A stretch of DNA of 64,000 nucleotides from Branchiostoma floridae (taxonomy: Eukaryota), in NCBI RefSeq assembly GCF_015852565.1, contig NC_136205.1:3066707-3130706 (forward strand). Direction: 5' to 3'. This document shows, in pieces, positions 9,619 through 63,742 of this stretch. Position 1 is the stretch's first letter. Every line of letters starts with the position of its first letter. A program made the translations under genes and the position numbers. The notes beneath the pieces are model-generated. The model saw only the letters and a program-made list of their open reading frames with translations. It was not told the DNA's origin and did no database searches.

Positions 9619-10003
9619 CTGAGGAGGGGGTGGGGTGAGTCATTCGTTTGTTTGTTTGTTTGTTTGTTTATTTGGTTTATTCACACACAATGTCGGAATA
9701 CTTCACAGTTGAGTGGTCTAAAAAGAAACTACTGATATGTAAAGCATCAGTAACAGCAGGCCCTAACCTGGAACCCACAGGGCAAACAAAAGAGTGGAAG
9801 GCATAAGAACAGCTGGAGAAGGGACACCGAGGAAGAGATGAGGAGCATCAGTAACAGCTGGCACGACCTGAGAAGGAAGGCACAGAGACGTGTACAGTGG
9901 AGGGCAATCATCGGTGGCCTATACTCCAACTGGGGCAAAGGGCCCAAGTAAGTAAAATATGTAAAAAAACAAACAAAATAAAAAATCGAACTTCGTGTCT
10001 TAC

Positions 10004-10135
10004 GTATTTCGCAGCGGTCTCCCCGAAAGCCCGGTGGACAGATGCACTCCCCCGTGTCGGAGTGGCACATCCCACCGTGGAGGCAGTTCGGACACCCCCG
10101 GCTACATCCGGGACCCCACCGGTTTTCTTGACATC
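10004..10135 (-). CDS. EGF-like exon (GCQENRWGPGCSRGCPNCLHGGMCHSDTGECICPPGFRGDRCE)
   Basis: Cys-rich ORF 9747-10163. The exon is 132 nt. Confidence 0.55.
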
Positions 10136-10618
10136 CTAAAGAAAAAATGACAGGTGTTAACACTCACGTGACTGTGTCTTAGGTACTGCCCGCCATGTTG
10201 GATGGTTAAAGCTGGAAGTTGCTAGGTAACTTTGAATTATCATATGCAGACGTCAGGTAATTATTACATCATATCATACAAATGCACATTTACAGGTATC
10301 CAGAAGGGAATCAACCAACATGGCAGACAGTAACATACCAAAACTATTTTTTTCAGAATGCTCTGGGGACAAGAACTGACATTCTAAGTGAATGTATGAT
10401 AAACGTTGTTTTTGAAGTCTCCATTGATCAATCGACCCATCAATCAATCAGTCAATAAATTAATCAATCAATTTACTTAAAGTTTTCTACTAACTTCTTG
10501 ATAAATTGTAGTTTACTAACAAGTCAGATTCAAGGATGTATTCGTGTGCTTTACAGAATATTGTGAAAAGGCAGTTAAAGACAATGGTCAGTGCAGCAAA
10601 CTGATAAGTTTAGTGTAC

Positions 10619-16931: not shown

Positions 16932-17511
16932 CGAGGGGCGTTCAAGAAGTAATCCACCTGACCCATTTCCCAAAGGAGGAGATTAATGAAACTTGGTGCA
17001 GTTATTAGTCTTTCTCTTCATAGGAATCACCCAGAGTTATGCATTTCTACCATCGTTTGATGCAGCTCTGTACACCGTTTTTGTAGGACGCCCCAGGTTG
17101 GTCCTGCAACAGATGCCTCATCAATGGCAGAAGAGGGACGACCAGGTCTGGGAGCTGTTTCCACAGACTTCCGGCCATGTTTGAATTCACAATGCCAGCG
17201 TTTTACAAGGTCATATGATGGGGAATCATCACCATAAGTTTCTTTTATTTCATCAAAAGTCTCATTTGGTGTGCGTCCTTTCAAATACAAAAACCGGATC
17301 ACTGCGCGACACTCAACTGGCTTCATTTCACACCTGGTCCATTTCACACCTGACTCAGTTCAAACACCTTTAAATCAAAAACCAAAATTAGTTCAGAGCT
17401 GTTTTTTGCAACATAACCCATAGAGATATGAATCATTACATATGCAAAATTTCATCTAGATCAGACAACTGGAAGTGGGTCAGGTGGATTACTTCTTGAA
17501 CGCCCCTCGAT
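16932..17511 (-). mobile_element. Internally deleted mariner-like element (~580 bp) with ~38-bp TIRs and a remnant transposase N-terminal HTH ORF
   Basis: The TIRs are cgaggggcgttcaagaagtaatccacctgacccatttcc and its reverse complement at 17473-17511. ORF 17027-17347 (…CRAVIRFLYLKGRTPNETFDEIKETYGDDSPSYDLVKRWHCEFKHGRKSVETAPRPGRP) resembles the Mos1/Himar HTH. TA dinucleotides flank the element. Confidence 0.8.
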
Positions 17512-18346
17512 AGCTATAAAATGTGAATGACGAAAAGAAATCTTCTAGCAGCCAATGAGCTTCTTTAGTTTGAATGACTCAGCAAAATTATTGGTTAGAA
17601 ACTAAATTTTAGCGCTCCTAACTGTAATAAAGAAATTGATATTAAATTATAAGAGCTCAAGCATATCGCAGATCAGTGACCGCACACTGAACATAATGTG
17701 TAGTAAAAAAGTAAAAGCCTAACAAATGAATAAACAAAACAGATTAAACTCACCACATGTTGTCCAGAGAAGAATAAAGGTGCTAGAGAAAAGCAAAAGG
17801 TTGATCATTTTGAAATCACATCGAGGAATGTGTTAAAGTTTATACAGTAACACCGTTCTGTGTACTGTGGTGACTTCTAAATAGGGACTGGTGGCGAATT
17901 ATGCTGGGAACTTGTGCCTGATGTGCTTTAGTGCGCATGGGTGAAGAGGGGACACTTTTGGACATCCGTAAGTTGTCATTGTTGCGGTAAACAAGTGTCG
18001 TTCGTTACGGTTGGATAGGTGGCAAGGGTAGGGATCGTCTGGAAATATCCGCATTTTGCTTTAAGGTCCTTTAGGGGAAATATTTTACAGTGTGTTCGTG
18101 TTGTGTATAGTGTCCAAGCAGACGTCTCAGCTGGATGACAAAAGAGAAGAATTTTGCCAGATTGGGTCAAATAAGTTGCCAGGTGAATTCAGTCTGTCTT
18201 TTGCAGCATATCAAGCTATCCGTCGGTCAGTTCACTCCTAGGCCAATCAACTCCTACTAGAATTTATTGCTAACTTAGCCAAAGTCCCCTATTCGACCAG
18301 GCCGGAGTCTGGTAGAGACTTTTAACGGGTACAATAGAAGCCAACC

Positions 18347-18491
18347 AATTGCACAGCGGATTAACGCACACTTCTGTTAACTGCACCGAATTCCAAAATC
18401 CCAAACCTGTACGGTCCAGCTGAATTCGCATTATTGCACCAGCCGGATAGTTGCACGAAATATGCTGGCAAATAGGCTGTGCAATTAACCC
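18347..18491. mobile_element. ~145-bp MITE (TIR AATTGCACAG…CTGTGCAATT), copy A. Its terminal TTAA was the target for the piggyBac-like insertion.
   Basis: caattgcacagcggattaacgcacacttctgttaactgcac…ggcaaataggctgtgcaattaa. Copy B is at 33034-33172. Confidence 0.65.
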
Positions 18492-19696
18492 TCAAGCACC
18501 CGACCTTTATTTGCGACTAAAATGACCGAGTGGGGTCCAAACGGACCCCAAAATGTTTTGTTCATGAAATCACAGTTCCAATTACTATCGGTGATCATTG
18601 TACATACATTGCTTCGTCAATGTAAGAGGAATATTTTGACATGCTAAGGTGTTGATAATTCTACCTCATTATCATAATTTATGCAAAAGATCAGAAGGAC
18701 CATGTTTTGCACTAAACCTATTCTGACCAGAGAGGGGAATTTTGAGGCCCTCACTGCCTCAGCAACTTTTATGTCGCGTAACTCATGAACGGCTAGTGCT
18801 AAATCTACGAAACTTGGTGATATATCACAAAATATTGTTAGCAAAATTTTTTTTGTCAATAAAGTAAATTTATCTTGATTTGGGGTTGTCATGGCAACGG
18901 AATTCTGACAGGCATATTTTTGCAAAACTTTTCCAATTTCGATTAAAAAAAGGTTTTCTTAGTAAACCATGCTCATTTTCTTACAACAATAAAATTCTAT
19001 GAAGTTCAATGCTATTTACATGATTTAAAATTTATAATTTATGCTAATTTCATGACGTCATTAGTCAAAATCCAAAATGGCCGCCCTTTTAGCAAAATGA
19101 CGTCATAATGTCGTTATATTATATTTAACAATCTTTATTGACACGACAAAAGTATTATATGGTGATGACACAGAAGTTTTTATGAGGATTTAGTTTTACA
19201 TGCTTATTATCCCCTGAAATTTTGGTGGTGATAGGATAAGTAGTTAGGGAGTTAGACTCAAAAGTTTGTTTCAAAAGCTGCACTTTTTGGCTGGGGTCCG
19301 TTTGGACCCCAGACGGACTGATCACAGACTTTCTTTATACAGTCAAACCTGTCTATAGTGGCCACTCAAGGGACCGGACAAATGTGGCCATTATAGACAG
19401 GTGGTCTCTGTATAGAGGTGGCAACTTGTAGATAAAATACCCAAGGGACCGACAAAAAGTGGCCACTATGGACAGGTGGCCCCTCTGTAGAGGTGGCCCC
19501 TAATACAGGTTTGACTGTACCTTTGTAGCTTCCACAGTATTGTACCAATCTTCATAAAAACTTAGGAAAAGGTATAGAAGATAAAGGCTGACAAAGTCAC
19601 GGAAGGAATTTTTCTTCAGATAAAAAATGTTCAAATGGTACTTAAAAATTTACGCCTGGGGTCCAAATGGACCCCACTCGGGTGTTTGAGGGTTAA
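18492..19696. mobile_element. Second piggyBac-like non-autonomous element (~1.2 kb) of the same family, inverted relative to the first, with TTAA target-site duplications
   Basis: TTAA|CCCTCAAGCACCCGA ... TCGGGTGTTTGAGGG|TTAA. Its internal sequence matches 14760-15010 in reverse complement (ttgccatggcaac, tgacgtcat blocks). Confidence 0.7.
19337..19513. mobile_element. Palindromic MITE nested inside the piggyBac-like element
   Basis: cagtcaaacctgtctatagtggccac…gtggcccctaatacaggtttgactg, with nearly perfect hairpin halves. Confidence 0.6.
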
Positions 19697-26229: not shown

Positions 26230-26892
26230 GTTCGTTCGTTTGTTCGTATCCATTTTTGATTATACTGCTGCTGGGATCCCTGTCACGGGTAGGCAGCAGT
26301 CGGATAGTCTTCACACTGTGCTTATAATAATATAATAATATCATTAATTTCTTTCTGTCCCTTGAATTTTCAATGGAATACTTGTCGAGTGTGGAAGGCG
26401 CGATGATCCTAAAGGGGTCTTGGGAACTTAGTTTCAAAATCTCTGAAAGACCCCCTGAAACACTGTTTCCTGCATTTTGAGGGGCAAATTTTGCTGGTAG
26501 AGTAGACTCAGCTTGGTCCAATCACCAGGTATCTGAGCTGTATTCATGGAGATCTTTGCAATATTTGATTTTTTAGATATCTTTACATGCTGGTTTTTGT
26601 CCGTCACAAAGGACAAAATGTGTAAAATGTTTGTTTGTCCCTAGCTGCAAAGTTCCATCGAAAACAAGGACGGATGCAGACTAGAACCCTGGGTTGTACT
26701 GTAACCTAGTATTGATCAGAAGTTTCATCACTTAGTAATCAAACATACTTTCTTGATCTTTTAGGTATTATTATCACCTATAGAAATGTCTGATTTGTTG
26801 AAAAATATTGTATAATGATATGATATGAAGTTATGACGTTTAATTGAAATTATGACATTAATGCATTTTACATGAACTATTTTCTTTTCCAG

Positions 26893-27069
26893 ATCGACAA
26901 GGCAGAAGCACTACTTCTAAAGCTAAAGCAGGCTGTTGAAAGGAAGGCAGCAAATGAGGAGCTTCAGAAACTCTCCTCGGAGTTTTACAGCGCCATCCCC
27001 CACCGACCCGTCCACAAGTGTGTCATCAGGAACAAGAGGATAATAGCACGGAAACAGGACATGTGTCAG
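26893..27069 (+). CDS. PARP4: PARP4 exon 8
   Basis: ttttccag|IDKAEALLLKLKQAVERKAANEELQKLSSEFYSAIPHRPVHKCVIRNKRIIARKQDMCQ|gtacag. Matches human ILLLVKAALKNGETAEQLQKMMTEFYRLIPHKG...KKADLCQ. Confidence 0.85.
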
Positions 27070-27071
27070 GT

Positions 27072-27430
27072 ACAGGGCTCTAGCCAGCTCGACATTTTTT
27101 TTCCGTCAGCCAATTCCCAATGTCGCGAAAACACTATTCCAGGAGTTAGAGAGACTGAACTGAGACCTTAAAAAACGGGTTTTAATGAGATTATCGTATG
27201 CAAAAGGGCACCGACACACAATATCAACAATCATAACAATAGCAAAACAAACAGTGTGTGGCTTTTACGGCCGTGGACGGCGTCCCCAAGCAGCCTGTAG
27301 CTTCCACCAAGGAGCTTTTATCAGATTTTTGTCCGTCAAAGTTGACGGATTGGTTTTAAAATTTTTCCGTCACACGCAGCAAATTTCCGTCAATTGACGG
27401 AAAAACGGACGCTGGCTAGAGCCCTGGTCA
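27072..27430. mobile_element. hAT-like MITE, copy 2, inserted exactly at the donor of PARP4 exon 8. Its 8-bp TSD GTCAGGTA duplicates the CAG|GTA junction.
   Basis: TIR CAGGGCTCTAGCCAGC…GCTGGCTAGAGCCCTG. The flanks are ATGTGTCAGGTA|…|GTCAGGTAAAAAG. Confidence 0.75.
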
Positions 27431-31019: not shown

Positions 31020-32600
31020 CTGCATTCTATTCACCTTGTTTCCAATGACATAATTTCCGAAAACCAACATGCGTATAGAAAATCACACTCTACAGCTAGT
31101 GCCCTTATACAAATGTCTGACTACTGGTTGGGGGAGATAGATAAAGGGAATTTGATTGGCGCCGTTATGCTAGATTTTAGCGCGGCATTTGATGTCATTA
31201 ACCACGATATTTGTTTAGCCAAGCTTAAGAGCTATGGTTTTGAGGAATCTGCAATCAAGTGGGTACAGAGTTATCTTGGCAACAGGAAACAAGCTGTATT
31301 CGTTAACGGTAGTTTTTCCTCATATAAAGAATCCAGGTGCGGCGTTCCCCAAGGCAGCTGCCTGGGTCCATTGCTTTTCTCTATATTTGTCAATGATCTC
31401 CCCGCATTTACAAATAGTATAGTAGTCATGTACGCTGATGATTCAACGCCCTCAGCATCGGCTCCCACTGTCGCGAAATTGAAATACAAATTGCAGACTG
31501 ACTTGGAGCGAATCTGGAATTGGGTACAAACTAATCATCTTGTTCTCAATATTGGAAAAACTAAATCAATCATGATGGGTACGCAACAAAAACTAAAACG
31601 TAATCCCAAATTAGAACTAAGAATAGATGGAACAGACATTACACATGTAGAACAGGCTGAACTGTTAGGTCTCACTATAGACCAACGTCTCACATGGGGA
31701 TCGCATATTGACAAAACGAAGAATAAAATGGCAGGCATACTAGCCACAATAAGACGACACAGGAAGTACTTCACAAAAAGTATATTGAGATCTGTTATTC
31801 AGGCTCTGGTTTTGTCACACATTGACTACGGCTCAGTGCTGCTATCCTCTGCACCACAGACACACATAGATGGTCTTCAGGTGGTCCAGAATCGCGCTGC
31901 TCGCCTGGCCACAAACAAGCCCTTTGACACCAACCTGGAAGACCTACACATGCAGTTAAAGTGGCAAACCGTTAAAGAAAGACTCTTCACAAATACTGTA
32001 TGTACATTCCACAAAATTGTTAAGGAAAGGCAACCCCAATGCATCTTCAAGCAATTACAAACAATTCAATCCACACATGAGCATCACACGAGGCTGTCTA
32101 CTAGAGGAGCATTCACTCAATCAAAACCCAAAACAAACGCTAAAACAAGGACATTTGGCTACAGATGCATCAAAACCTATAACACATTGCCAAACACAAC
32201 GACATCATACAACAACATTGAGTTCAAATCTAGGATAAAAGAGCTTGCGAAAACACGAGACAAAAGACAACCCCTGAGCACATGGTGGTAATGATTTTTA
32301 TATTTCAGTATATCTAAGTTATATATTTATGTTGTGTTATTAGTACACTTTTGATTGGATTGTGTTTCAATCAATTAAGTTAACTTCTTCTGCTATTCAT
32401 TATTTGTTATGTATGATCACTTCTTTATTTTGACCTCTGACCTCTGCTTATTATTTTGCTTATTATTTTACGCTAATTATCCGCTTTTGATGTTAAGTTG
32501 TTTCTTTTTCATTTCATGTATTTTATTTATTCTTATTATTATGACTCCAGGAAGAGTAGTGGCATGATTTTATGATGTACACTAATGGAGATCGCAACAA
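31020..32600 (+). mobile_element. 5'-truncated non-LTR (LINE) retrotransposon fragment with a reverse-transcriptase ORF, lying in the PARP4 intron between exons 13 and 14
   Basis: ORF 31113-32291 carries RT motifs: AVMLDFSAAFDVINHD, CGVPQGSCLGPLLF, YADD, and a thumb-like C-terminus. Confidence 0.8.
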
Positions 32601-43785: not shown

Positions 43786-44187
43786 AATAAAGTGCTTGAT
43801 GGACAGATCACAGAAAAGGCCATTGAACACAGCTTGGAGTTCTACACCACTGCAGTGGAGACTGCAAAAAGGGAGCTTCCCCCAACCCATCCAACAGTGT
43901 TGCAGTCACAGCTCTCTTTGGCAATGTTTTATCACAACAAATTGAATATGCAGGACAAGGCCTGCCTGGTTGCAAAGGCTGCCTTTGACGATGCGATCGC
44001 GGAGTTGGATACTCTGAGCAAGGAAAGCTACAAGGACTCGACCTTGGTGATGCAGCAGTTGAGAGACAACTTGACATTGTGGTCTGCTGAGGACGGGGAA
44101 GAAGAGAAAAAAGCCAACGAAAAGAAAAAGGTCCTTATTCCTAGTGTCAACCATAGCTCACTTTGGCTAATCAACCTTCTCGGATGA
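43786..44187 (+). CDS. Intact ORF encoding a 14-3-3 protein C-terminal half (helices 7-9, including 14-3-3 signature 2). It is embedded between PARP4 exons 29 and 30. Its status is unresolved: it could be an exonized module, a nested-gene exon or a young pseudogene fragment.
   Basis: [109 protein letters not shown]. Compare 14-3-3 epsilon [42 protein letters not shown]...[41 protein letters not shown]. The frame is open from the tttctag| acceptor-like site at 43785 to the TGA at 44185. It is not in phase with the exon-29 donor when obvious splice sites are used. Confidence 0.5.
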
Positions 44188-44194
44188 AGCCCAT

Positions 44195-44575
44195 CTTACA
44201 TACCCAACCATGGCCTCGCGACCTTCTCCAGACCATGGTTGGGAGTTAAGCCCCTGTCACACATAGCCGACCATGCCCTCCCAACCTTCTTCAGACCATG
44301 GTCAGGAGTTAAGCCCTTGTCTTACATACCTGACCATGGCCTCCCAACCTTCTCCAGACCATGGTCAGGAGTTAAGCCCTTGTCTTACATACCTGACCAT
44401 GGCCTCCCAACCTTCTCCAGACCATGGTCAGGAGTTAAGCCCTTGTCTTACATACCTGACCATGGCCTCCCAACCTTCTCCAGACCATGGTTGGGAGTTA
44501 AGCCCGTCTTACATACCCAACCATGGCCTCGCGACCTTCTCCAGACCATGGTTGGGAGTGAGACCATCAGTAATT
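44195..44575. repeat. Tandem array (~6 copies) of a 63-bp (3n) unit with internal palindromes (catacctgaccatgg…ccatggtcagg). It is open in two reading frames.
   Basis: ccatggtcaggagttaagcccttgtcttacatacctgaccatggcctcccaaccttctccaga repeated. ORFs 44239-44613 and 44273-44632 are open only because of the 3n periodicity. Confidence 0.7.
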
Positions 44576-46133: not shown

Positions 46134-46398
46134 GTAGGATGGCAGGTGAGATGGTAGAGTACTGTAAATCTTGAGATGCATGGTTTTCATGGTGACATCT
46201 CCACCATGATACAATCGCCATACAAACAGCCCGGCTGGGCCCTGGGTTATAGAAATGTGACTTAGTCCTTACTGTTACCTAGTTTAATAAAAGAGACAAC
46301 GAAAAAGAACTGCAGTCAAAAATCATACTTTTGACACTTTTTGTTGGGCTCCGTTTTTCAAAGACACTAACTCTTGAATCTTTCTATTTCTTCAACAG

Positions 46399-48751
46399 CT
46401 GCTGATGAAAAAGAGGGTTCTCCTCTTGCTGATACTTATCAGATGAAGGCTAATGCCTTGCAATTGGAAAAAGGTCGATTTGCATCTCCCATGAGGTCTA
46501 GATCAAGGTCAAGGTCAGATAAACATTCCTCTCCAGCATACAGCCCGACATCTCCAGCATATAGCCCAGCATCTCCAGCATATAGCCCGACTTCACCTAC
46601 TGAGGAAGCCACAGAGGCTGAGTACACAAAGCCTAAACCTCTAGCTCGGAAAATGGCACCAAAACGGGTCGAAAAGGAGAAGGCACCAAGCCCACACTTC
46701 TCAAAGATGTCTGCAACGTTCTTGACCCGAGAATCTGAAAGGGGAAAGTCCTCATACAGAGTGTCAGATGAAGTTCAGGCTCGTGTAGATCGCCTTGATG
46801 ATCTAGTAGAAAAAGCTGATGCTCTTAGTGCACAAGCTGCAATATTTGGTGCTTCAACAACCATTTCTAAAGATGATGGCCTCTTTGCCGGTTCAACAGA
46901 GGCAAGTGTGCAGAAACCTAAACCTTTTGAATCCAAGCCAGGTATCGTTCAACCTGCCAGATTTACTTATGAAGCAACACCAGATACTACCAAGGGTCTT
47001 TTTGGCAGAAAGGCTGAACCAGAGACTGCAGGGTTTGCTCTTGCCCAGTCTGTGGCCGCAGAAGAGCCAGCTCCTGCTTTTGGTTTTGGAGCTCCAGTTG
47101 CAAGCTTTGGTGCAGAAACTTATGGAACTCGTGGTGTAGACTTGGATGCACCCATACCGTATGGCAAAATCCCAGTTGGTGGAACGCCGTTTGGTGAAAC
47201 GCCAGTTAGTGGAAAGCCGTTTGGTGAATCTGCTGTAAAGTTTGGAGGTCCTCCTGGCACTGTAGCTGGCACAAAGACGCAAGAGACTGCATTTGGTCAG
47301 GGTTTTGGTTATGCTTCAAGTCGTGGTGTAGGCTTTGGTAAAGCAACATTTGGTGAAGCAACATATGGCACACCATTTGGTGGAACACCATTTGCTGCAA
47401 CCACAGGTCTTTTTGCCCACTCAACTGCACCAAAGGATCAGGAAGCTGTGTCATTTGGTTTTGCTCCCTCTACTGACCAGAGCACAAGGGGTGGTGGAGG
47501 ATCCGCAGGTGGTTTTAGCTTTGGTTGGACTGCATCATCAGATTTGGGACAGAGGGATCGAGACAGGAGCTCCCCCCTAATTGGTGACACAAAAAAAGGA
47601 TTCAAGTTTGGAGCCTCACTTGAAGAGAAAGAAGAAACAGCAAGCTTTAGCTTTGGTGGATCCAGCCAGAAAGTGGTTCCTCAAGCAGGTTTTGGAGCTG
47701 ATCAACAGATGCAGCAGCAACAACAGCAACAACAACAACAGGCTCAGATGAATGTCTCTGATACTGCTCCTCAGAGGAAGATGCGAAGCAGGCTTCATGG
47801 CGCTATAGCTACCTTAAGTGAATCCAGTCAAGCAGAAATGGTTCCTGAAGCAGGTTTTATCTCCAATCAACGGATGCAGCAGCAACAGGCTCAGATGGAT
47901 GTTCTTCTTACTGCTCCTCCGAGGACAGGTGGTGGAAGGGTTCATGGCGCTTTAACTAGATTAGACGAATCCAGTCAAGCAAAAGTGGTTCCTCAAGCAC
48001 GTGTTGGCTCTCGAGCTCCTCAAAAAGCGAGGAAGACAACTGGCGGCAAGGCTGTTAGAGTTTCTTCAGGATTCAAGGACAGCTTGGACATCGTAGACAA
48101 GAGTTCACGCGACACTGGTGACTCTTGGAGAGCTGTCAAACGGACCGAGACCCCCATGGCTGGTTATTTTGACATGAGGGCCATGTCCCCTGCCTCAACA
48201 AATTCTGCACAGTCAGTTGCTTTTCAACAGCTGTCAGCATCTGCTGCCTTTCTACAGGCACCCCCTCCTGCGCCACCCCCTTGTTCAACAGGCCCCCCTC
48301 CTCTTCCACCCCGCTGCCCAGCAGGACCCCCTCCTCCAGCTGGTGCCCCTCCCCCACCACCACCACCCCCTAAGGGCATTCAGCTTCTTAAACCAAGAGC
48401 AAGTTTAAAGTCCAAAGCAGTAATGGCAGCACCCATGCGTGCACTATCCATGCCCTCGAAAGAATATGCCCCATTGCCCCCTCCTCCTCCAAGTTCAGTC
48501 GAACAGGCACCAGAGCTACCAGCATGGGATAGAGAAGAAGAACTGCAAATGGGGATTGTTGAAGAAAGCCGTGCAATTGCTTCGTATGAACAGATGGAAG
48601 AGTTAAAACCATTGTCAAGAAGTTTGGAATTGAGACAAAAGAAGAAAAAGAAACAGTTCGAAATCCAGGCAAGGTTGGAGGAAGAAAAGGTATCATTGGA
48701 CAAAGTCATGTACATGGATGAAAGCGTTCAAGAAGGAGAGGAAATGTACAG
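46399..48751 (+). CDS. PARP4: PARP4 giant low-complexity exon 32 (784 codons) with five modules: SPAYSPT CTD-like heptads, FG/GF repeats, polyQ, an FH1-like polyproline run and a basic KKKKKQFEIQARLEEEK tail
   Basis: Single ORF 46374-48755. The acceptor ttcaacag|CT at 46398 is in phase with exon 31. The donor ATGTACAG|gtaaga at 48751 is in phase with exon 33. The position corresponds to the Pro/Ser-rich disordered region of human PARP4. Confidence 0.65.
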
Positions 48752-49442
48752 GTAAGAGTGAAGTCAACAAAGTACAGTCTCTACCTAATTAGATGAATGT
48801 GAAATTTTCCACAAATCGGGGGAATATTTTATCTGAGAGCTTGCAATTGCCTGGTTAATGTAGTACAGGCTTGTCCGCTGAAGATTGTAACTTGTAACTG
48901 TAGCCCTTTGGCCAATTTCTACTGATTTTTCACATAAACCACAGTCTCATAGGGACTAAATGAAATGTTTGATTTATGTAATTGTGGCAAACATGTTGCC
49001 TACCTGAGCTTTTCAAAGGAAAAATGTAAAGTTTCAATAAAGTTAACGTAAATTACTTTCAAGGACCAATTTAGGGACTATTCTTGACAATTGAACTACA
49101 TGTAAATCCAAGGTTACACAAAGCTTACCATAAAAGTGTACAACTTGTGATAACAGTCATTATTTTCCACATAAAGCAGTGTTCAAGTTTGTGGGCACGG
49201 GTCAATGGTATGCAAATGTATTGTGTCGTCTTAACTTTATTCTTTAAAGTAGGGGTTCTTTGCATTGAGCAATTTCATGATATTCATACAATGCCACATC
49301 GTTGTAAACACCACAGAAGACAGTATCTCTTTTGTTTAGTATTTTTGTTTGATGTCAGCCTGTTGTTACATGATTGTGTATAATTATGCCTTTGTCATCT
49401 TGTTCATGACTTTTGTAACATGTATTACAAACTTTATTTCAG

Positions 49443-53440: not shown

Positions 53441-54929
53441 TATCTTTGTGTGAATGGCCAGCTATGTGTAGCAGTATGGTTGTTGTAACCATACACTAAC
53501 CTTGTTTGAATGGGTCATGGTTTGTTATGGTTTTGGTGTGTGTGTGCGAAATAGTGGTTTGATCATTACTACAATGGTCTAATCTGATTTTGTACCCCTC
53601 AAAACATGGAGACACCAGAATAATTATTTTTGTAGCAGGTGTGGTTACAGTGATATTGACAAAAACAAGATTTTCTGTAAAACTGCCAAAATGGTGGTGT
53701 GATCATTACAAACATGGATTAATCTGGTTATTTATCCTTCGAAACATGGGGATAGACACCAAAATCAATTTGATACCATGTGAAGTTACTGAGATATTGA
53801 CAAAAAGAAGACTTTTCTTAATAAGTTAATGGCCGCCCTACTTTGCATATTGTGCGTATTGCCTAATGATGACAGAATGGCATAATCCAGATTCTTATAG
53901 AGCACACCTCAGAGGCATAGAAACATCAAAAGAACTTTGTATGAATTACATTGCAAGGTTATGTAAAAATATGGGGTTTGGCAACCAAACTAAGTCTTGT
54001 GTGGTAAGTATCAATGTGGTCGCTATGTTCATGTTGTAACAAAGACATTATAAAATGAAGGTATTGAAGTCAAAAGGCCAGTAACATTCTGTGCATAGTA
54101 AGAAAACAGTTTGTAATATATAGTTGTCAGGCACATGGCAGTATTGTATATCAGTAATAGTATCAAAATGACACAATGAAGAACTGGTAACCTTTAGCGC
54201 AAAACACCTGATCATCTGTAACACTGGACACACAACCATATAAATACAGTGTAGGTCCTAGTCATGACTTCCACTGGCACAATTTAAAGCCACCCTTCAT
54301 TCCAGATATCACATGACATCCCAACCATTTACCCAACATAAATATCAAATCCTATGATAAACATTTACACCAAAACAAGGTACAAACACACACAACCATA
54401 CAACATCGCAATACATCATCGCATATGACTATCAGTACAATAGACAACAAAAACAAGGGTATACATAATCTACAAAAAAAAACATACACATACCACTCTC
54501 TTACGCTAACACACTATCTCCTTCTCCTCCACCTTAGAAACTCGTCTCTTCTTGCGTTTCCCCATGATGACCAAACACGCTCATAACCTCGTATCACAAG
54601 TATAGAGGCTTGTACAGGACTGAAAGCAACACTTTAGCCTTCAGCACCACAACTTATACCTGACCAATCAATACAGCAGCAGATTAAACCAACCTACAAG
54701 CACTCTTAGAACAGAAGCCACTGATGTGATTTGTAACAACAGCACAGCCTGCTGTGACCACAAGCAAGCAGACCTACATGTACTAGTATCATCTGTTTCT
54801 TAGGAACAAATCCACTGCAGGATATCTAAAATTAGACCTGTCACTCAAACAGCCACACAAACCGTCATCTGGGTTCACAACCAAGCAGATATGAGTAGAC
54901 CTGCCCCAACCAAAAAAAAAACAGCATCA

Positions 54930-55530
54930 GCCTACAGTGTCAAGTTCAAGCACTAGGAGGCCCAAAATCAAACCTGACCACCAGGACACAAGCAACAATC
55001 CACGTAACAAATAGCAACACAATGGCACCTTGCGTTCCGGAGATACAGCGCACGCGCCGTGCCCGCAGAAAAGGTAACCTGGAATGTCAAGTTCAAGCAC
55101 CAAGGGCGCCAAAATCAAAATTGAGAATTATTCAGCCACCACCAACACATGTGCCAAATATCATTGCGCCCGCACCAACCGTTCAGAAGATATAACTCCG
55201 GAAAACCCCCTCCCCGACACAAAATTCGACCTGCCGCGTCAGGTTCAAACGCGACAAGGCCCAAAGTCAATCCTAGGCAACAAGCAACAACTCCCCACCC
55301 ATGCACCGAAAATCGTCGCAATGGCGCGTATCGTTCCGGACACACAGCGCCAAAAGTGCCCCAAAAAACACAAAAAATGCCACCTTCAATATTAAGTTCA
55401 AGCACCAGGAGGCCCAAAATCAAACCTGAGTGTCAAGCTAACACCCCCAACCCACGTACCAAAAATCGTCGTGCTCGCACCATCCGTTCTCGAGATACAG
55501 CGCCCTAAATCCCCAGCTTCCAAAAGTTCC
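54930..55530. repeat. ~150-160-bp tandem (satellite-like) repeat, ~3.5 copies
   Basis: Units start caagttcaagcac(c/t)a(g/a)g(a/g)ggcccaaaatcaaa and contain ccgttc(c/a)g(g/a)agata(c/t)a. Confidence 0.6.
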
Positions 55531-57316
55531 CACGCCCCTGAAAACCATACCTGCATACATGCAGGTAATTACACAAACATAAATACCCACATACACATAC
55601 ATGTACACACATAATTACACACTGTCAGACACATATAAATACATACACGCGCATACAAGCACTCACATGTAGGATGCAGACAATACCTACATTTGCATAC
55701 ATTATTAAGAATGGTCTGGAGCCTGCCCAAACTGGTTCTTCTGCATGTTTCCTTGTTTATCGCATTTGTGTCCAACCCACCAAACTGGGCGTCTCGGTAC
55801 AACGGTACAACATCTGCTGTATCTAGCTAATAATAACAAGACAGAAGACTTTTGGCTCATCAACCTAAAGACGGTATGTGGTCTTTGAATTCTATAGCTA
55901 TCACTTTTGTGTCTTACATTGGCGGCAAATACGACCAAGTTGTCGTAAGACGTTGAAACTCTTTAATGCTTCTCATTGTGTATATGTCCTCACACACCAG
56001 CAACGATTTTCCAACAACCTGCCTCAACCGTAATCATGCACGTTAGGGTTTTTGCCTTGCCGCCAGGCAAGGCTTTACGCCAGCTTTTTTCCATGGATCA
56101 ATGGACGGACCTTTTAACCCAGCCCTTCCAAAGCCCCTTCCAAAGGCCCTTCTTTCCTTGCCGAGTTTCATGGCTTAGTTAGACAATGGTACATTCCAGA
56201 CGAGTATTAAAACGCTCTTCTAGACGCATGTTACTGTATGTGGTCCAGCGTAATAAATCTACGCTTTAACTCACCATGTTCATATAAATATATATCACAA
56301 ATTGCATCAGAAGGAACTTAGTTTGTAATAAAAAATAATGCATATTCATTGTGGGTCAAAAAGTTTTACAAAACCTGTTTAATGTGCCAATAATTCATCT
56401 GACATAAATTATGATAATGAGGGGGAGGGGGGCGACATGTGGAACTCGGGATTTTTAAGCGTAGAATCTAGTCTAACTTACCAAAATAACATAAAATACG
56501 CGGCAAGGCACAGCTTTTTTAAAAAGATTTCTTGTTTGACAGCAGACCTTTTTCGTCTAGTAGTACGTTTCGGCACAGGTAATCCCGACTTAGAGATGGA
56601 GGGGGTAGAATGGTGATCCCGTTCTTGAGGAGAGTCACACATGTGCACATCGAGTACCTTTAAGGGCCCCACAACATGGAAATTGGTAAGCTAATAAGGG
56701 TTACTTGGGTGAGCGTAAGCAGTTCATAACCTTTATAATCTTAAATGAATTATCGACATCCTCGCAAATCAACCTTTGGCTTCAAATAGAGAGTAGTACT
56801 CAATGGCAGGCTCGATCTCATTCAAATGTGCAACATGTAGCGATTTAGTTTAGAAAAAATACACCAGCTTATGTTGAATAGATAACGTCGAAAGAATTGA
56901 ACAATGCTATAGTTGGCTACAGAAATTATTGACCATTATAGTAAAACATTTTACGGAAAGTATACTAGAAATGACTCAAACAGTCCTATGAAATCATAAG
57001 GTTCATTCAAATGCTTAGGTACCTCTGTTCCTTAGAAAGTCAGATAAACTGTACCGACTCACAATAAAGCTTTAACGTTAAACAGAGTACAAGAACAAGA
57101 ACAGTTACTGATCTAATCTGATCCTTGGACTTGCAACTGATCTGTGCTTAGGTGCACACGAGCAACTGCGCAGATGCCTGCTTTACACACGGTCAGACGT
57201 CATCTTGTCAACAATGGACACGAACCTGCTTAGGTTTGAAAAACGTCATCTTGTCAGCAATGGACACGAACCTGCTTAGGTTTGAAAGATGACATTTGGA
57301 ATATTTCCTGTTCTAG

Positions 57317-58738: not shown

Positions 58739-60017
58739 TAGTCACGTTGTTTTCAGTTCATCTTCCTCTCATGGTTTAATTTTACACATTTTACAATTTC
58801 AACAAATTTACACAGACATTCCTATATGCAACAACATTAGAAGATATACCAATACAAAAACGAGAAGTCACAAATATAAGCGCATCAAATGTACATAAAA
58901 GAAGTCTTACATAGACATACCGCCATCTTAGGACATTTATATAGTCACAAAACAGCAGATGTCGTCATTCTTACAAATACAACAGCTTTCCACATACCTA
59001 AACATGAGAACATATATCACAATACACACAAAAAAGAAGAAAATTGATGGTGGACGTGCAACATAAAAATCAAAAACAGATTCAGTGATGGACTCCAGTG
59101 ATTCCACTGTACGTTGTAGAAACTTTTGATTACCGAATAAAGCTTTGAAGAAATACAGTTTGTAACGCTATACGGTTAACAGAAAACCTTATTATCAAGG
59201 TATAGATTTAAACAACTTGGGAGCTATAGTCTAAAATAAGCTTTTTTTTCAAGTGTTGGCACCATATATGTACATTTATACTTAGGTGTGTTGAGTTTGG
59301 TTCTTGCCCTGAATTGTATGTGACCTTTTTTTAAATTTGAAAAGATGAAGCAAGACCAGAAAACCAAAACATTAACTTAGTTTTGCCTAAAATGTACAAA
59401 ACAGGAACTAGAATATATTTTACACATATCGAATAGCTATGCAACTTGGGTGTATATGTATATGAAAAATGATTATTCTTCAATGTTTTTTTAATGGAAA
59501 CTTAAGTTTCACTGCCTTTGATCTACTTATATCTAATGATATCACTAATTTGAATTTCTCATTTGTACTGAAATATAGGCTTGGTGTATTGTGCGTGTAT
59601 GAAAGTTTAAAAGATGTTCTCTTAAACCTTAATATATCTTAATGGCTCAGACTTCAAGAAAATGACTTAGGTTCCTGCCCTGAGTTGCTTTCCTCCACAT
59701 CTACCCACACTGTATTTACTCCCTCATTTTGAACAATTCCTTTCCAGTTGTAACATTCATCTAGACTAACGTTTTGAACACCTAAATAAACCATCACCAA
59801 CACTCTTTAGTTTATTTACACTAATTTTAACTCTGTAAAGATTGTTAGATAGACTTACATTGCTTTCCATGGTCATATGTAAATCATCATTGGGTTTTTA
59901 GCACTTTTATGTACACTATGTAGACTAAAGCAAGCTTATACTGGGCATTTTTCTTCTGTATTCCATTGTCCATCTTGGAATATGGAACTGGCCAGTAGAC
60001 CGATCCTCACAACTGCT

Positions 60018-61244
60018 TTAAAGTCCAAATACGTGTAGGAAGTTTTTATTCGATTCCTCCCAGTACTTCGAATCCAGCAGTTTCTGCTTGAGCCGTTGAG
60101 CAACCTTGAACTCCGTGCTTCTATTCTTCAATATCTGCACAATGCGCGTTTTTAGCCTTGCCACGTCTTCGTGGTCATCGCCACTGATCTCCACAATCGG
60201 GTGCGTGAAATCCAAGTCACCGTCAATCTTATATTGGGCCTTCAAGAACTCTGCAAGCCCCGACTTGCTGGAAACGACCGTAGGGACACCCGCAGCGATG
60301 GCCTCGAGGCCAACCAGTCCGAATGGCTCTGCACGTGACGGCATCAGAACAACATCTGCCCTTCCCATCTCTTCGCACAGCTCTTCCTGTGTGCAATACT
60401 CCAGAGGGGTGAAGGGAACAAACTCAAATTTACCTTTGTTGGCGTTGATGATCTCCTGTGTTTTTTCAAAATCCCCTTTCTTGATGCCACACAGTCGCCA
60501 CTTCGTGTTGGGTAGTTCCTCGATCACATCTCCCATGCTCCGTGCTGAAAGATCGTAGCCTTTCAACCTCTCCACACCCTTGACCCTACCGATGGACAGC
60601 ACCACTCTTGTGTCGGTCTCCGCGGGTGGTTCCATATTGGCCTTGCTGAATATGTCGGACGGTTTAGGCAAAAACTGGATCCGTTTTAGTTGTTTGACTT
60701 GCTTTGTCTGATGCGTGTAGTAGTCGTGCAACCTTGGACCTACTGAGACGACAACACTTGCATCTTTAAGGTCATCCAGAATGCTCGCATGCTCCTTTGC
60801 TATCTCCTGCACTCTCTCTGTACTTTTGTAGTGGCTCGTGTTTTCAGGGATGACGTGTGTGACTTGGGCGAGTTTGGCGTCAGGAAGGCGGTCCTCCTTG
60901 ATTCGTTTTGCTGCGCGGCTTGTGATGTTAACGTGACCGACGATGAAGTCTACATCTTCCGGTAAGTGTGGATAATAAGTCAGATGTTGCCGGGTCAGCC
61001 ACTTAAGGTTTGGGGTTTCGTCGTCATCTTCGGTTCTTGGAAAGATCAGCTGAACCCCATCAGCAGCTGCATCATCCTTGTCCTTCTGGTTGGCCTGTAA
61101 GACTGTGCTGTAGACCTTTGCCCCTTTCAAAGCCAGAAAGCGCGCCGTCTGGCGGTGGATAGTGGATATGCCCCCTTTGGAGGTCCCATACTCATCGTTG
61201 AGCATCAACACCACGGGCTTTCCCCCTTTAAACAGCAAATGCAC
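60018..61244 (-). CDS. Intronless 408-codon GT-B fold, family GT4-like glycosyltransferase ORF (E-x7-E motif EPFGLVGLEAIAAGVPTV). It has no ATG at its N-terminus, so it is possibly a terminal exon.
   Basis: The uninterrupted ORF has N-terminal PVVLMLNDEYGTSKGGISTIHRQTARFLALKGAKV (Gly-rich loop) and C-terminal VVLMPSRAEPFGLVGLEAIAAGVPTVVSSKSGLAEFL. Its first codon in the track is GTG. An AG acceptor (…tttgctgtttaaag|GGGGAAAGCCC) lies 18 nt into the ORF. Confidence 0.7.
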   Translation of the reverse strand: MHLLFKGGKPVVLMLNDEYGTSKGGISTIHRQTARFLALKGAKVYSTVLQANQKDKDDAAADGVQLIFPRTEDDDETPNLKWLTRQHLTYYPHLPEDVDFIVGHVNITSRAAKRIKEDRLPDAKLAQVTHVIPENTSHYKSTERVQEIAKEHASILDDLKDASVVVSVGPRLHDYYTHQTKQVKQLKRIQFLPKPSDIFSKANMEPPAETDTRVVLSIGRVKGVERLKGYDLSARSMGDVIEELPNTKWRLCGIKKGDFEKTQEIINANKGKFEFVPFTPLEYCTQEELCEEMGRADVVLMPSRAEPFGLVGLEAIAAGVPTVVSSKSGLAEFLKAQYKIDGDLDFTHPIVEISGDDHEDVARLKTRIVQILKNRSTEFKVAQRLKQKLLDSKYWEESNKNFLHVFGL

Positions 61245-61799
61245 ATAGTTTTTTCAAAGTTGCAGATAGACTGTTGATATCATTAAAAGTAGTAAAATAT
61301 GATTGCATGATCTTGGGCCTCCATCCATAGCTAAAGATATAGTTAAAGGTGTTGATATTTTAGGATGTACACTTAGCTATTGTCCTCGTGTTCGATACAA
61401 GTGCAGCATTTTGTCGATTAGGTTATACCTGGCAACTTCCTCATCATTTTCAGTTTTTCTAAGGTAGCACAACGTACAATTATATGCATTCAGTTCACTT
61501 TAGGAAATAAAACATGTGAGCCAGATTTGCCTTGTCCACTTCTGTACACTTCGGGGCTACCTGTGTGTTAGCTGGTCTCAGTTTTCTGTCCAAACAATGC
61601 TGCAGTGTAATGCACAATGTAGATCCTGTATGCTCGACGTATGGGGCAATTGACTTGTTTTTGTTTTTTTAAACATGGTACTGGTACTGTTATAATGCAG
61701 CAAAGTACTAGTACTATTTTAATGACCCAATTTACAGCTGTCGTCCACAAGTCCCATAGACTTTTGTTGCTTTGGACTGGAAAATGTATAAATCCTCAC

Positions 61800-61892
61800 C
61801 TTCTTTCCGAGAGGCAGGTGCTGTTGCCCCTGCCGGGCCACTATGGAGATTGGTGTTAGAATCGTCTGGCTCAGCACCCATCTCAGGTACAC
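61800..61892 (-). CDS. Low-complexity linker exon of the ZU5 gene (VPEMGAEPDDSNTNLHSGPAGATAPASRKE). It ends in phase 1.
   Basis: aactacag|…GAAG|gtgagg. It resembles the previous exon, and the intron just downstream of each (plus-strand coordinates) carries the same catagacttttgttgctttggactgg motif. This is a local exon-intron duplication. Confidence 0.45.
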
Positions 61893-62045: not shown

Positions 62046-62135
62046 CTGGGTTACTGGTTTCAGTTGGTACATGGCCAGACCCAACTTTATTTGGGGATGT
62101 CTCAGGACGGTGGTCATTGGTCCGGTTACCATTAC
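62046..62135 (-). CDS. Low-complexity linker exon of the ZU5 gene (GNGNRTNDHRPETSPNKVGSGHVPTETSNP)
   Basis: ttggtag|…|gtgaga, 90 nt. Confidence 0.45.
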
Positions 62136-62549
62136 CTACCAAGCACGAAGAAAAACAACATAGCAATTAGACCCGGTGATATGTTAAGACGTATATGAAG
62201 ATATAACTTCAGGTGTGCAAAAGTCAAAATATAACCAAATTAAAGGCCCTCGTCAGTAATTCTCATAGACTTTCGTTGCCTTGGACTGGTAAATTATATA
62301 CTGTACGTGGTTTCTATTTATTCGGAATTAGCCTCTCAAAGTGTCGCAGAATTCCATAAAACTACATCTAGATCACTTATTTGACATCTGAACAAAATCA
62401 AAGCAACAGTACCATTGTTAAATAACAATTATAACAATTCGGCATAACAATTACAAAAATTCGGCATCACAGAATGAAGGGACATTTTGTATTCCTAGAC
62501 TTTTATAGAAATAATTACATGACTTTTGCAAAGAGAAAAATGTACTCAC

Positions 62550-62580
62550 TAGAAGTGTTAGGAATTCGATCTTGGCGTTC
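62550..62580 (-). CDS. 31-nt micro-exon of the ZU5 gene (ERQDRIPNTS)
   Basis: tctttcag|GAACGCCAAGATCGAATTCCTAACACTTCTAG|gtgagta. Confidence 0.35.
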
Positions 62581-62825: not shown

Positions 62826-63742
62826 CTCCCGAAACGTGAACCTGCATACAACCCGAGGTTCTTGCTCTTGAATAGTTGTGATGATGACTTCACCCTTAAG
62901 ATGTTTTCCGTTCGGCCTATCCAGGAGCATTTGAACAGTCTGTCCGTGCTCTTCGCGACAGAGCTGGGCACATAGCTCTATTGTCTGAGATTCTTTTTGG
63001 CCTTCTTTGATACTGACAACAACTTCAATATCATTCCTTTGAAACAGATCGAACATTGCTTTGTTGCTTCCACACATGGTGAAGCCAGGAAGGTAATAAT
63101 CTTTTTCAACACTCTTGTCCCTACACACAACATGGAAATCTACGTCTACTTCATGTGGCTTGATGTGTGCGGAAAACCGACAATTTAAAGTTCTTAACGA
63201 CAGAACGTATGCCATGCTCTGTCCTACATGTACACCCGTTTCAATTTGCTGCAGCTGCTGCTCGGTCCACAGCACACACAGGGGACAGAAGGCTTGCAGA
63301 GATATGGACAGTTTGTCCGGATGTATCTGATGTGGGGTTGAAGCTGTGATATCTGCCCAGCCATGTCCATCGAAATGCTTCAGCAGAACACATTCCATGC
63401 CTTCAGTACCCGGAGGTCTCCATGTCTCTAGCTCAATTGGTCCACTCAGCTGTGCGCCGTGTAGGTTGACATCGACAGCCGGGGAGAACAGCACCTGATC
63501 CAGCAGCTCGCGTGGACAGGCCTCCTCACATAGAGACCAAGGGTAGCCAGAGATCCAGCTGAAGCCTTCGTCACCTCTCAAAATATCGGGAATGTCTACA
63601 GTAGAAACTGTAATTGTTGTGTCTCTCTGAAGGACGCCTGATGGCACACAAAGTTTGGCAAAACCGGAAATCTCAATCTCCCCACCCGATGGTCCTACAA
63701 ACGCCTTTGCAGTCTTTGTGTGATGTAGCTCTTGCAGTATTC
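62826..63742 (-). CDS. Large exon encoding a ZU5 domain followed by a UPA-like region (UNC5/PIDD/ankyrin-type)
   Basis: ttttag|GILQELHHTKTAKAFVGPSGGEIEISGFAKLCVPSGVLQRDTTITVSTVD…LFSPAVDVNLHGAQLSGPIELETW… has the ZU5 consensus (A-x-F-D-x-x-GG-x-L…G-V-x-L-x-IP-x-GA…SP-x-V-x-x-GP-x-G-x-x-F-x-x-P-V-E-L). The donor is G|gtaaga at 62825. Confidence 0.65.

Follow-up and report, generated by a model that had tools for sequence, protein, structure and literature searches.

The closest described relative of the sequence considered here is the GT4-conflict family (Pfam PF20706), whose GT4 glycosyltransferases occur in conflict systems of bacteria and in invertebrate proteins of immune type. Kaur, Iyer, Burroughs and Aravind (eLife 2021, PMC8195603) described the family together with its expansions in amphioxus and corals, and proposed that it passed from bacteria to animals in an ancient transfer. 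The part of their source data considered here lists DED+GT4, DEATH+GT4 and sGTP+GT4 combinations for B. floridae, and ZU5+ZU5+GT4 and DED+TPR+GT4 for cnidarians. In the literature we found no demonstrated substrate, activity or immune phenotype for members of the family. Enzymes of the same superfamily, annotated as 'Glycosyl transferases group 1', also occur in the expanded, immune-type NLR-like proteins of corals (Acropora), which carry TPR, LRR or Ank repeats and in which the glycosyltransferase usually lies N-terminal to a NACHT NTPase (PMC4083563, PMC12314368). ZU5-UPA pairs, for their part, belong to the ZU5-UPA-death-fold supramodules of UNC5B, ankyrin, PIDD1 and NLRP1/CARD8 (FIIND-CARD), and CARD8 is cleaved at the C-terminal end of its ZU5, between F296 and S297 (PMC3210808).

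The locus compared with these systems lies in a window of 64,000 nt (the whole stretch of DNA that was analysed), where an uninterrupted ORF had originally been predicted to be an intronless bacterial-type GT4 gene. Very probably, the ORF forms the final, 3' exon of the multi-exon amphioxus gene LOC144867384, which encodes a predicted cytoplasmic TPR/DED-like/ZU5-UPA/linker/GT4-conflict protein with a presumed effector role. The gene is already annotated in RefSeq, and adds one copy to a described, lineage-expanded family.

With the GT4-conflict family it shares a full-length HMM match, the same motifs and the C-terminal 'effector' place behind death-fold, TPR and ZU5 modules, and, as far as the part of the PMC8195603 source data considered here goes, it belongs to the amphioxus expansion recorded there; the exact amphioxus combination of TPR, DED-like, ZU5-UPA and GT4 is absent from the rows considered. 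Nothing essential sets it apart from the family, its ZU5-UPA module being a divergent, amphioxus-restricted one that falls below Pfam calling. The coral proteins have the enzyme superfamily and the immune-type, repeat-bearing setting in common with it; here, in contrast, GT4 is C-terminal, behind ZU5-UPA, and the annotated protein has no NTPase. The ZU5-UPA-death-fold supramodules differ in their output, which at this locus is not a death-fold domain but a GT4 enzyme, set off by about 72 aa of disordered linker; moreover, the ZU5 similarity is under the Pfam threshold, a Cys stands for the nucleophilic Ser, and autoproteolysis is putative.

Gene structure

The ORF was found as described in the original prediction: it covers 60018..61244 of the minus strand in an intron-rich animal locus and, over 1227 nt, encodes 408 aa and a stop. 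Its stop-free stretch of 411 codons ranks third in the six frames of the window, after runs of 794 and 424 codons. The start given in the ORF list is a GTG assigned mechanically, with an in-frame TGA three codons before it; the earliest ATG-coded Met is residue 14, which falls within the first beta-strand (KPVVLML), and the ORF has no in-frame ATG ahead of that strand. The true beginning of the GT4 coding segment is a splice acceptor at 61225 (...gctgtttaaag/GG, the slash marking the junction), entered in phase 1, so that the first Gly codon takes one base from the preceding exon. The 'intronless gene' is thereby lost: a usable ATG is missing, and the acceptor joins the upstream exons in frame.

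The resulting five-exon model (Table 1) has GT-AG sites at all four introns and a single continuous frame, and it gives exactly the C-terminal 778 residues (309-1086) of RefSeq XP_078585414.1, the 1086-aa product of LOC144867384 (Branchiostoma floridae x B. japonicum), with the GT4 exon accounting for residues about 685-1086. The domain order of that protein is TPR (TPR_12 x4), DED-like, ZU5-UPA, linker and GT4, and its residues 1-308, with the TPR repeats and the DED-like domain, are encoded past window position 64000. Of the three origins first proposed for the ORF it was thus the last, a terminal exon of the ZU5 gene, that proved correct. That reading is also backed by a locus of B. belcheri (L001), in which the same ZU5-UPA exon (16387-17283) is followed by a GT4 exon (18010-19176) within one NCBI gene, and the two modules are joined in further annotated proteins as well (P0014, P0131, P0128, P0130, P0132 and P0133).

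XP_078585414.1, although 100% identical, was missing from the first protein search and turned up when the upstream exon was used in an exhaustive representative search. The gene structure is predicted, from RefSeq Gnomon and our splice reading, and its true 5' end may lie further out, since XP_078585414.1 begins partway through a TPR unit. A Death-domain exon, as a nested or alternative 3' end for the GT4 exon, was sought within the window with no match. The introns near the linker exons contain a 64-nt duplication.

Table 1. Features of the 3' part of LOC144867384 in window coordinates
Feature	Position	Strand	Description	Evidence or conservation
AATAAA polyadenylation-like signal	59811..59816	-	201 nt past stop codon	consensus match only
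Terminal coding exon	60018..61225	-	GT4-conflict domain and TAA stop (60018-60020)	ORF, Pfam, acceptor context, frame
E-x7-E motif EPFGLVGLE	60303..60329	-	ORF residues 306-314	both Glu invariant
GRVKGVERLKG	60558..60590	-	ORF residues 219-229	R220 and K228 invariant
Gly-rich loop GTSKGGIST	61161..61187	-	ORF residues 20-28	both Gly invariant, bacteria to amphioxus
Linker exon	61800..61892	-	93 nt, phase 1-1, low-complexity Pro/Ser/Gly/Thr-rich	GT-AG sites, frame; verbatim in XP_078585414.1
Linker exon	62046..62135	-	90 nt, phase 1-1, low-complexity	splice model; XP_078585414.1
Mini-exon	62550..62580	-	31 nt, phase shifted from 0 to 1	splice model; XP_078585414.1
ZU5-UPA exon	62826..63742	-	917 nt, 305 aa, divergent ZU5-UPA module	splice model
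Q-A-F-C-P	63282..63296	-	exon residues 149-153, F459/C460 of RefSeq protein; candidate FIIND/PIDD-type autoproteolysis dyad	alignment

The glycosyltransferase domain

The assignment to the GT-B/GT4 glycosyltransferases was sound, as was the label 'bacterial type'. ORF residues 13-399 match positions 1-382 of the 385 in the PF20706 profile (E 3.3e-77; 260.5 bits, with a gathering cut-off of 26 bits), while Glycos_transf_1 matches at 59.7 bits, 200 bits below. Both motifs named at the outset, the Gly-rich N-terminal loop and E-x7-E, are intact. When 20 amphioxus, hemichordate and bacterial proteins are aligned, nine residues are invariant: G24, G25, H104, H130, K140, R220, K228, E306 and E314 in ORF numbering (G17, G18, H97, H123, K133, R213, K221, E299 and E307 by alignment column). 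We take R220 and K228 to be the canonical diphosphate-binding Arg and Lys of GT4 enzymes, and all of the canonical donor-binding and catalytic residues are kept in this copy. The exon is under purifying selection. Paralogous loci L001-L005 were used for comparison, and against three of the paralogous exons dN is 0.27-0.30 vs. a dS of 0.87-1.13, for a dN/dS of about 0.3 that is approximate because dS is near saturation; for the FIIND-GT4 paralogue L002 the ratio is undefined because pS, at 0.77, is saturated.

An AF2 model of the domain (pLDDT 90.7, pTM 0.89) shows a confident GT-B fold with two Rossmann-like halves, and Foldseek ranks BshA, MshA, sucrose-phosphate synthase and GlgM as its top PDB matches, at a TM of about 0.65-0.7 (for BshA and MshA, prob 1.0 and TM 0.63-0.69). 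BshA (6n1x, 3mbo, 5d00) and MshA (3c4q) have the GT-B fold, Gly-rich loop, GH motif, Arg/Lys pair and E-x7-E in common with it, but identity to the solved enzymes is only 14-17%, and donor and acceptor are not inferable from them; when sequences alone are compared, the E-x7-E region is the only one detectable (E about 1e-4). This fold neighbourhood, along with RefSeq names such as 'D-inositol 3-phosphate glycosyltransferase-like' and 'sucrose synthase-like' for some of the paralogues, might suggest a housekeeping or metabolic GT4 (of the ALG2/ALG11, PIGA or GLT1D1 kind, or glycogen- or sucrose-synthase-like) and not a conflict effector. Such a role is very unlikely given the low identity just mentioned, the 200-bit lead of PF20706 over the generic profile, NCBIfam metabolic GT4 matches that fall far under their cut-offs (best 46.5 bits vs. 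273.7), a lineage-specific expansion to more than 100 copies, and the fusion to TPR, DED-like and ZU5-UPA modules or, in paralogues, to Death, CARD, OTU and LRR. The Pfam match list of the ORF contains none of ALG2/ALG11, PIGA or GLT1D1, and the closest homologues, which could have turned out to be GLT1D1, ALG or PIGA genes, are instead animal GT4-conflict genes with multiple exons. It is also conceivable that the domain is catalytically dead, its role being limited to sensing sugar nucleotides or scaffolding interactions, since degenerate copies exist in the family: the Gly-rich loop is gone from some paralogues (P0030 has NDGYSVSAINRQ vs. NDEYGTSKGGISTIHRQ in the window). The window's copy, however, has kept all of the residues that bacterial and animal sequences share without exception, including both Glu, the Arg/Lys pair and the GH motif, and we consider inactivity improbable for it.

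The ZU5-UPA module and a candidate cleavage site

In the spliced product the exon upstream of the linker yields nothing by Pfam at E<=1, no BLASTP match to the FIIND-GT4 paralogue P0085, and no match among PDB sequences by phmmer and profile searches. Fold comparison alone identified it, as a ZU5 beta-sandwich followed by a UPA beta-sandwich, in a model of moderate confidence (mean pLDDT 68, with residues 50-87 and 150-182 below 50). The Pfam ZU5 profile (PF00791) reaches 12.7 bits on the window's copy (E 0.16), below its cut-off of 21, and has sub-threshold matches in 12 of 15 paralogues (best E 1.4e-4). The original 'ZU5' label stands by fold and falls short of the Pfam threshold.

The candidate autoproteolysis dyad is F-S in nine of the 15 paralogues, F-C in four, and missing in two. 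The window's copy reads A-F-C, with Cys where Ser would be at the putative scissile dyad, and no catalytic His for the putative reaction was identified in this copy. Placed by secondary structure, Q-A-F-C-P comes after a strand and before the last ZU5 strand, a position that may correspond to the described CARD8 site (PMC3210808). The invariant L-F-S-P-A (exon residues 84-88) was considered as a FIIND-type cleavage site and rejected, because it is a mid-domain 'LSP' strand, aligned to positions 49-77 of the 97 in the ZU5 profile, whereas cleavage in CARD8 is at the C-terminal end of ZU5.

Relatives and origin

Protein searches gave a set of 125 homologues, among whose fused domains are Death, DED, CARD, OTU, FIIND, LRR, Ank and TRADD-N, and more than 100 amphioxus paralogues are spread across four Branchiostoma assemblies. 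GT4 is a single-exon cassette, and the adaptor or sensor modules that recombination has placed N-terminal to it are many and varied. The domain is confined to one exon in all five of the other loci (four amphioxus paralogues and Ptychodera), and the acceptor of that exon is in phase 1 in the window and in each of the four amphioxus paralogues, and in phase 2 in Ptychodera. As for base composition, the GT4 exon (GC 0.507, GC3 0.60, CpG o/e 0.81) had been thought similar to local exons; compared with the neighbouring ZU5-UPA exon of the same gene (GC 0.481, GC3 0.46, CpG o/e 0.59), the similarity holds for total GC only, GC3 being moderately higher. The flanking non-coding DNA has a GC of 0.33-0.38.

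The raised GC3 and CpG, the lack of introns in the domain, and a family that is mainly bacterial, with actinobacterial or metagenomic sequences as the nearest non-animal matches, are what one might expect of a stand-alone intronless gene recently transferred from bacteria, one of the origins first suggested. The best matches are nevertheless animal, as search and phylogeny, both proposed as checks on transfer, now agree: an amphioxus paralogue is 78% identical and hemichordate sequences 33-37%, vs. at best 27-32% for bacterial sequences, and a neighbour-joining tree, built without support values and with bacteria chosen as the root, has the amphioxus clade as sister to the hemichordate clade, the bacterial sequences being the outgroup. 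Together with the sheer number of Branchiostoma paralogues, a splice acceptor where the start codon would be, and the splicing of the exon into an annotated 1086-aa protein, this leaves a recent transfer scarcely any probability. The jump in GC (0.50 in the exon vs. 0.33-0.38 in the flanks) could likewise be read as bacterial contamination or a chimeric assembly join around 59900-61300, but a like rise accompanies every exon of the window, canonical introns link the ORF in frame to animal exons upstream, the same two-exon layout is present in the independent B. belcheri assembly, and the closest relatives are animal genes; the chance of such an artefact is negligible. Being the last exon of an annotated gene in a described expanded family, the GT4 exon is not contamination, nor was it freshly imported from bacteria. 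Retroposition had been suggested too, and one uninterrupted coding block in an intron-rich genome does resemble a processed copy, possibly a pseudogene, of a multi-exon GT4 parent that came to adjoin the ZU5 exon by chance. A multi-exon parent is not evident, however, with GT4 in a single exon at every other locus including the hemichordate one; a search around the exon for hallmarks of retroposition or transposons gave weak short repeats only, with no poly-A tract past the stop, no target-site duplication and no convincing flanking direct repeats; and the intact frame, invariant catalytic residues and low dN/dS likewise make a retrocopy hardly credible.

Possible function and significance

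The architecture of the LOC144867384 protein, read as a multi-domain product ending in GT4, suggests a protein of innate immunity or of the 'conflict' type, in which this domain would be the effector. GT4 would act as a retaining NDP-sugar-dependent transferase, glycosylating an invader or a host molecule, after a signal had been sensed or a partner recruited by the N-terminal repeats and the death-fold domain. ZU5-UPA may hold the enzyme in check. One way would be autoinhibition within the molecule, of the kind known from UNC5B and ankyrin; another, after the example of PIDD, NLRP1 and CARD8, would be F/S(C) autoproteolysis that frees a UPA-GT4 fragment. An ancient passage of the family from bacteria into animals is probable, and duplication and exon shuffling would then have enlarged it, the single-exon state of GT4 perhaps being a legacy of its bacterial origin.

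A bolder version of the second option, which we hold to be doubtful, is that ZU5-UPA works like the FIIND of NLRP1 and CARD8. After self-cleavage at F/S (here F/C), degradation or displacement of the N-terminal TPR/DED-like part by a pathogen would set free a glycosylating UPA-linker-GT4 fragment, and the output of this 'functional degradation' would be an enzyme rather than a death-fold domain nucleating a caspase platform. Within the amphioxus family, ZU5-UPA might then be an exchangeable trigger that sets off Death, CARD-Death, Death-trypsin or GT4 outputs.

The locus overturns nothing, and is useful as a clean worked example of a bacterially derived domain surviving in a chordate relative as a 3' cassette of a single exon. 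Its ZU5-UPA-GT4 arrangement offers a concrete construct for asking whether GT4-conflict domains are real enzymes and whether an enzymatic payload could be delivered through release by FIIND-type autoproteolysis.

The glycosyltransferase domain

The reading frame at 60018..61244 lies on the minus strand, encodes 408 aa plus a stop, and ranks third in length among the stop-free stretches of the whole window in six frames. It is spanned by Pfam PF20706, 'Family 4 glycosyltransferase in conflict systems' (GT4-conflict; E 3.3e-77, 260.5 bits, profile 1-382/385), with the generic Glycos_transf_1 models matching more weakly and every metabolic GT4 family of NCBIfam scoring far under its cut-off. The ORF listing, the motif positions and the Pfam match bear out the frame and the motifs of the original prediction, with two corrections: the strand is minus, and the listed start is a mechanical GTG with an in-frame TGA three codons before it, the earliest real ATG being codon 14, within the first beta-strand.

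Residues G24 and G25 of the loop, H104 of the GH motif, H130, K140, R220, K228, and E306 and E314 (both Glu of the E-x7-E) are invariant in amphioxus, hemichordate and bacterial members (ORF numbering). The AF2 model of the domain is confident (pLDDT 90.7, pTM 0.89); its nearest structures are BshA and MshA, which are retaining GT4 enzymes, then sucrose-phosphate synthase, GlgM, OtsA and glycogen synthases; across these structures identity is 14-17% and TM ~0.6-0.7. By sequence alone, the E-x7-E region is the sole part of the domain detectable in the PDB. The dN of 0.27-0.30 against three paralogous exons, versus a dS of 0.87-1.13 that is close to saturation, indicates that the GT4 exon is under purifying selection. 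The domain is predicted to be an active NDP-sugar-dependent retaining transferase. P0030, the B. belcheri homologue encoded at 18010-19176 of the paralogous locus L001, has a GT4 exon without the Gly-rich loop (NDGYSVSAINRQ vs. the window's NDEYGTSKGGISTIHRQ), so some family members may be catalytically impaired.

Features of the GT4 gene in the window
Feature	Position	Strand	Basis
Candidate exon, large upstream (305-aa product)	63742-62826	-	GT-AG
Candidate autoproteolysis dyad A-F-C	63282-63296	-	paralogue alignment
Candidate mini-exon, 31 nt	62580-62550	-	GT-AG; phase shift 0 to 1
Candidate linker exon, ~90 nt, low-complexity	62135-62046	-	GT-AG; phase 1-1
Candidate linker exon, ~90 nt, low-complexity	61892-61800	-	GT-AG; phase 1-1
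Gly-rich loop GTSKGGIST	61161-61187	-	in GT4 ORF
GRVKGVERLKG motif	60558-60590	-	in GT4 ORF
E-x7-E, EPFGLVGLE	60303-60329	-	in GT4 ORF

The last exon of LOC144867384

When the minus strand is read upstream, the GT4 coding segment is seen to open at a splice acceptor (gctgtttaaag/GG at 61225), and four more candidate exons with canonical GT-AG borders lie ahead of it. The mini-exon supplies the 0-to-1 phase shift that the GT4 exon needs, and the five exons, spliced, give a single open frame ending at the ORF's stop; AATAAA lies 201 nt 3' of that codon. In an exhaustive HMMER search the product of the large exon was 100% identical to P0124, a 1086-aa protein listed in RefSeq as XP_078585414.1, 'uncharacterized protein LOC144867384 [Branchiostoma floridae x Branchiostoma japonicum]'. 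Residues 309-1086 of this protein, its suffix, are exactly the spliced model, residues 1-308 being encoded beyond window position 64000. This identifies the window as amphioxus DNA and the ORF as the final exon of a gene that is already annotated. With the acceptor in place and splicing to upstream exons, the proposed stand-alone intronless gene does not hold, and the alternative offered with it, that the ORF closes the ZU5 gene as its terminal exon, proves correct.

By Pfam the protein has four TPR_12 units, then GT4-conflict at 691-1077, with a sub-threshold DED match at residues 229-290 (E 1.4e-3). It starts mid TPR unit (MRRSIYGQDTEHPDIA...), and the gene model may be incomplete at its 5' end, with a larger sensor region further upstream; the paralogue P0140, compared for this region, has TPR repeats plus a ZU5-like module. 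No Death-domain exon was found near LOC144867384 within the window. A 64-nt direct repeat (61722-61785 and 62231-62294, 77% identical) in the introns adjoining both linker exons suggests that these exons are products of local duplication.

The same pairing of exons is found at L001, on a B. belcheri scaffold, where a large exon homologous to the window's (16387-17283, 58% identical) has the GT4 exon 730 bp behind it on the same strand, and NCBI puts the two into a single gene. The same N-terminal module also stands ahead of GT4 in the annotated homologues P0014, P0131, P0128, P0130, P0132 and P0133; these fusion proteins and the L001 arrangement give independent support for the upstream exon-GT4 junction. 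In the NCBI model of the L001 gene, an intact ZU5-UPA exon (ORF 16342-17316) is for the most part removed as intron, and at L002, a paralogous locus on B. floridae CM022888.1, the FIIND-GT4 gene of P0033 lies wholly within a same-strand Roc, COR-A, Death gene model. Adjacent models in such clusters may be pieces of larger genes, or nested genes.

The upstream ZU5-UPA module

The original prediction's ZU5 label fails by sequence and stands by fold. The upstream exon reaches 12.7 bits against Pfam ZU5 (cut-off 21), sub-threshold hits are seen in 12 of 15 paralogues (best E 1.4e-4), and its product had no match by BLASTP to a FIIND paralogue or by phmmer and profile searches to PDB sequences. An AlphaFold2 model of the module, built on a 15-sequence alignment (mean pLDDT 68; C-terminal half ~90, residues 50-87 and 150-182 poor), was matched by Foldseek to the ankyrin-B ZU5-ZU5-UPA-DD tandem (4d8o, E 1.8e-9; 6m3q_E, E 3.5e-10) and also to the rat NLRP1 FIIND, and on this modelled structure we accept the exon as ZU5-UPA at the fold level. 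Its 27 homologues, all from Branchiostoma, carry the module N-terminal to Death, CARD-Death, Death-trypsin or GT4, with Ank, TPR, Roc-COR, RING or kinase regions ahead of it.

The paralogue alignment places an x-F-S dyad after the strand ...SISLQ and ahead of the last ZU5 strand; it is F-S in 9 of 15 sequences, F-C in four, the window included, and absent from two. We hypothesize that the window's F-C is a candidate FIIND-type autoproteolysis site. The invariant motif LFSPA, first suspected as the cleavage site, was rejected, as it maps mid ZU5 profile.

Family and origin

A search of a 5.8-billion-protein collection gave 125 homologues of the GT4 ORF, of which more than 100 are Branchiostoma paralogues (best 78% identity, subfamily ~60%, others 40-47%), followed by hemichordates (Ptychodera, Saccoglossus, Glandiceps; 33-37%) and then by bacterial and metagenomic sequences (27-32%). 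Precomputed Pfam architectures of the paralogues include Death, DED, CARD, OTU, FIIND, LRR, Ank, Roc and TRADD-N. In a neighbour-joining tree of 108 GT4 domains, rooted by choice on the bacterial sequences and without support values, the amphioxus domains are monophyletic with the hemichordates as sister clade, the window's domain groups with the homologue P0001, and architectures are intermixed.

Horizontal acquisition or retroposition had been suggested by the lack of introns. Five other GT4 proteins were mapped to their loci (ZU5-type, FIIND-, OTU- and LRR-Death-linked amphioxus genes and one Ptychodera gene), and in all five the entire domain is one exon of ~1.2 kb; the acceptor is in phase 1, 3-5 residues ahead of the KPVVL strand, in the window and the four amphioxus genes, and the Ptychodera boundary is in phase 2. 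The single-exon state is thus a family trait, compatible with bacterial ancestry and spread via duplication and exon shuffling, and therefore gives no evidence for recent transfer or retroposition. Retroposition is further disfavoured by the flanks, with no poly-A tract found 3' of the GT4 stop and no convincing duplication around the exon; recent transfer is at odds with amphioxus and then hemichordate relatives being closest. A chimeric contig is likewise not supported.

LOC144867384 is already annotated, and its GT4 family and amphioxus expansion, already published, are as portrayed by Kaur et al. 2021 (PMC8195603), who treat GT4 domains as predicted effectors of bacterial conflict systems. 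In their account, lateral transfer led to the domains being 'drafted into' the immune-type proteins of cnidarians, cephalochordates and hemichordates, where they expanded. Entries in their source data include B. floridae DED+GT4, DEATH+GT4 and sGTP+GT4 and cnidarian ZU5+ZU5+GT4 and DED+TPR+GT4. GT4-bearing NLR-like proteins of corals have also been published (PMC4083563, PMC12314368).

Other features of the window

An exon-sized ORF at 26872-27171 (+) matches the PARP regulatory domain (E 1.3e-8), consistent with the PARP gene predicted as a neighbour. A 14-3-3 C-terminal exon (43792-44187 (+), Pfam E 2e-30) is directly followed by a 63-nt tandem repeat (44194-44559, 5.8 copies, 91% matches), which accounts for long spurious ORFs there in two frames. 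The window's longest ORF (46374-48755 (+), 793 aa) is low-complexity, rich in Pro, Gly, Ser and Gln and including a poly-Q run; Pfam finds no match in it, and its GC3 (0.33) and CpG o/e (0.33) are unusually low. Another multi-exon gene accounts for several EGF-like exons on the minus strand at 2666-4290 and 9356-10163 (EGF/hEGF, E values as low as 2e-17). Transposable-element remnants comprise a reverse-transcriptase ORF (31113-32291 (+), RVT_1 E 6e-19) and a Mos1/mariner HTH_48 fragment (17027-17347 (-), E 1.5e-9). Strand composition is markedly skewed at 54000-56000 (GC skew ~-0.27, AT skew ~+0.25), and degenerate direct repeats of ~140-150 nt (54912-55514, 62-72% identical) result in overlapping ORFs on both strands.

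Possible role of the protein

ZU5-UPA modules are known to exert control in two ways, by intramolecular autoinhibition (UNC5B, ankyrins) and by autoproteolysis that releases a C-terminal fragment (PIDD1, NLRP1, CARD8). For the LOC144867384 protein, architecture and conservation are established, and we infer the mechanism. It would be a molecule of the innate-immunity or 'conflict' type: its TPR and DED-like parts would serve in sensing or recruitment, with the GT4 domain as the output. The ZU5-UPA module might control GT4 either by autoinhibition, as in UNC5B and the ankyrins, or by autoproteolytic release, as in PIDD1, NLRP1 and CARD8, though we consider a FIIND-like release switch delivering an enzymatic GT4 payload rather unlikely.
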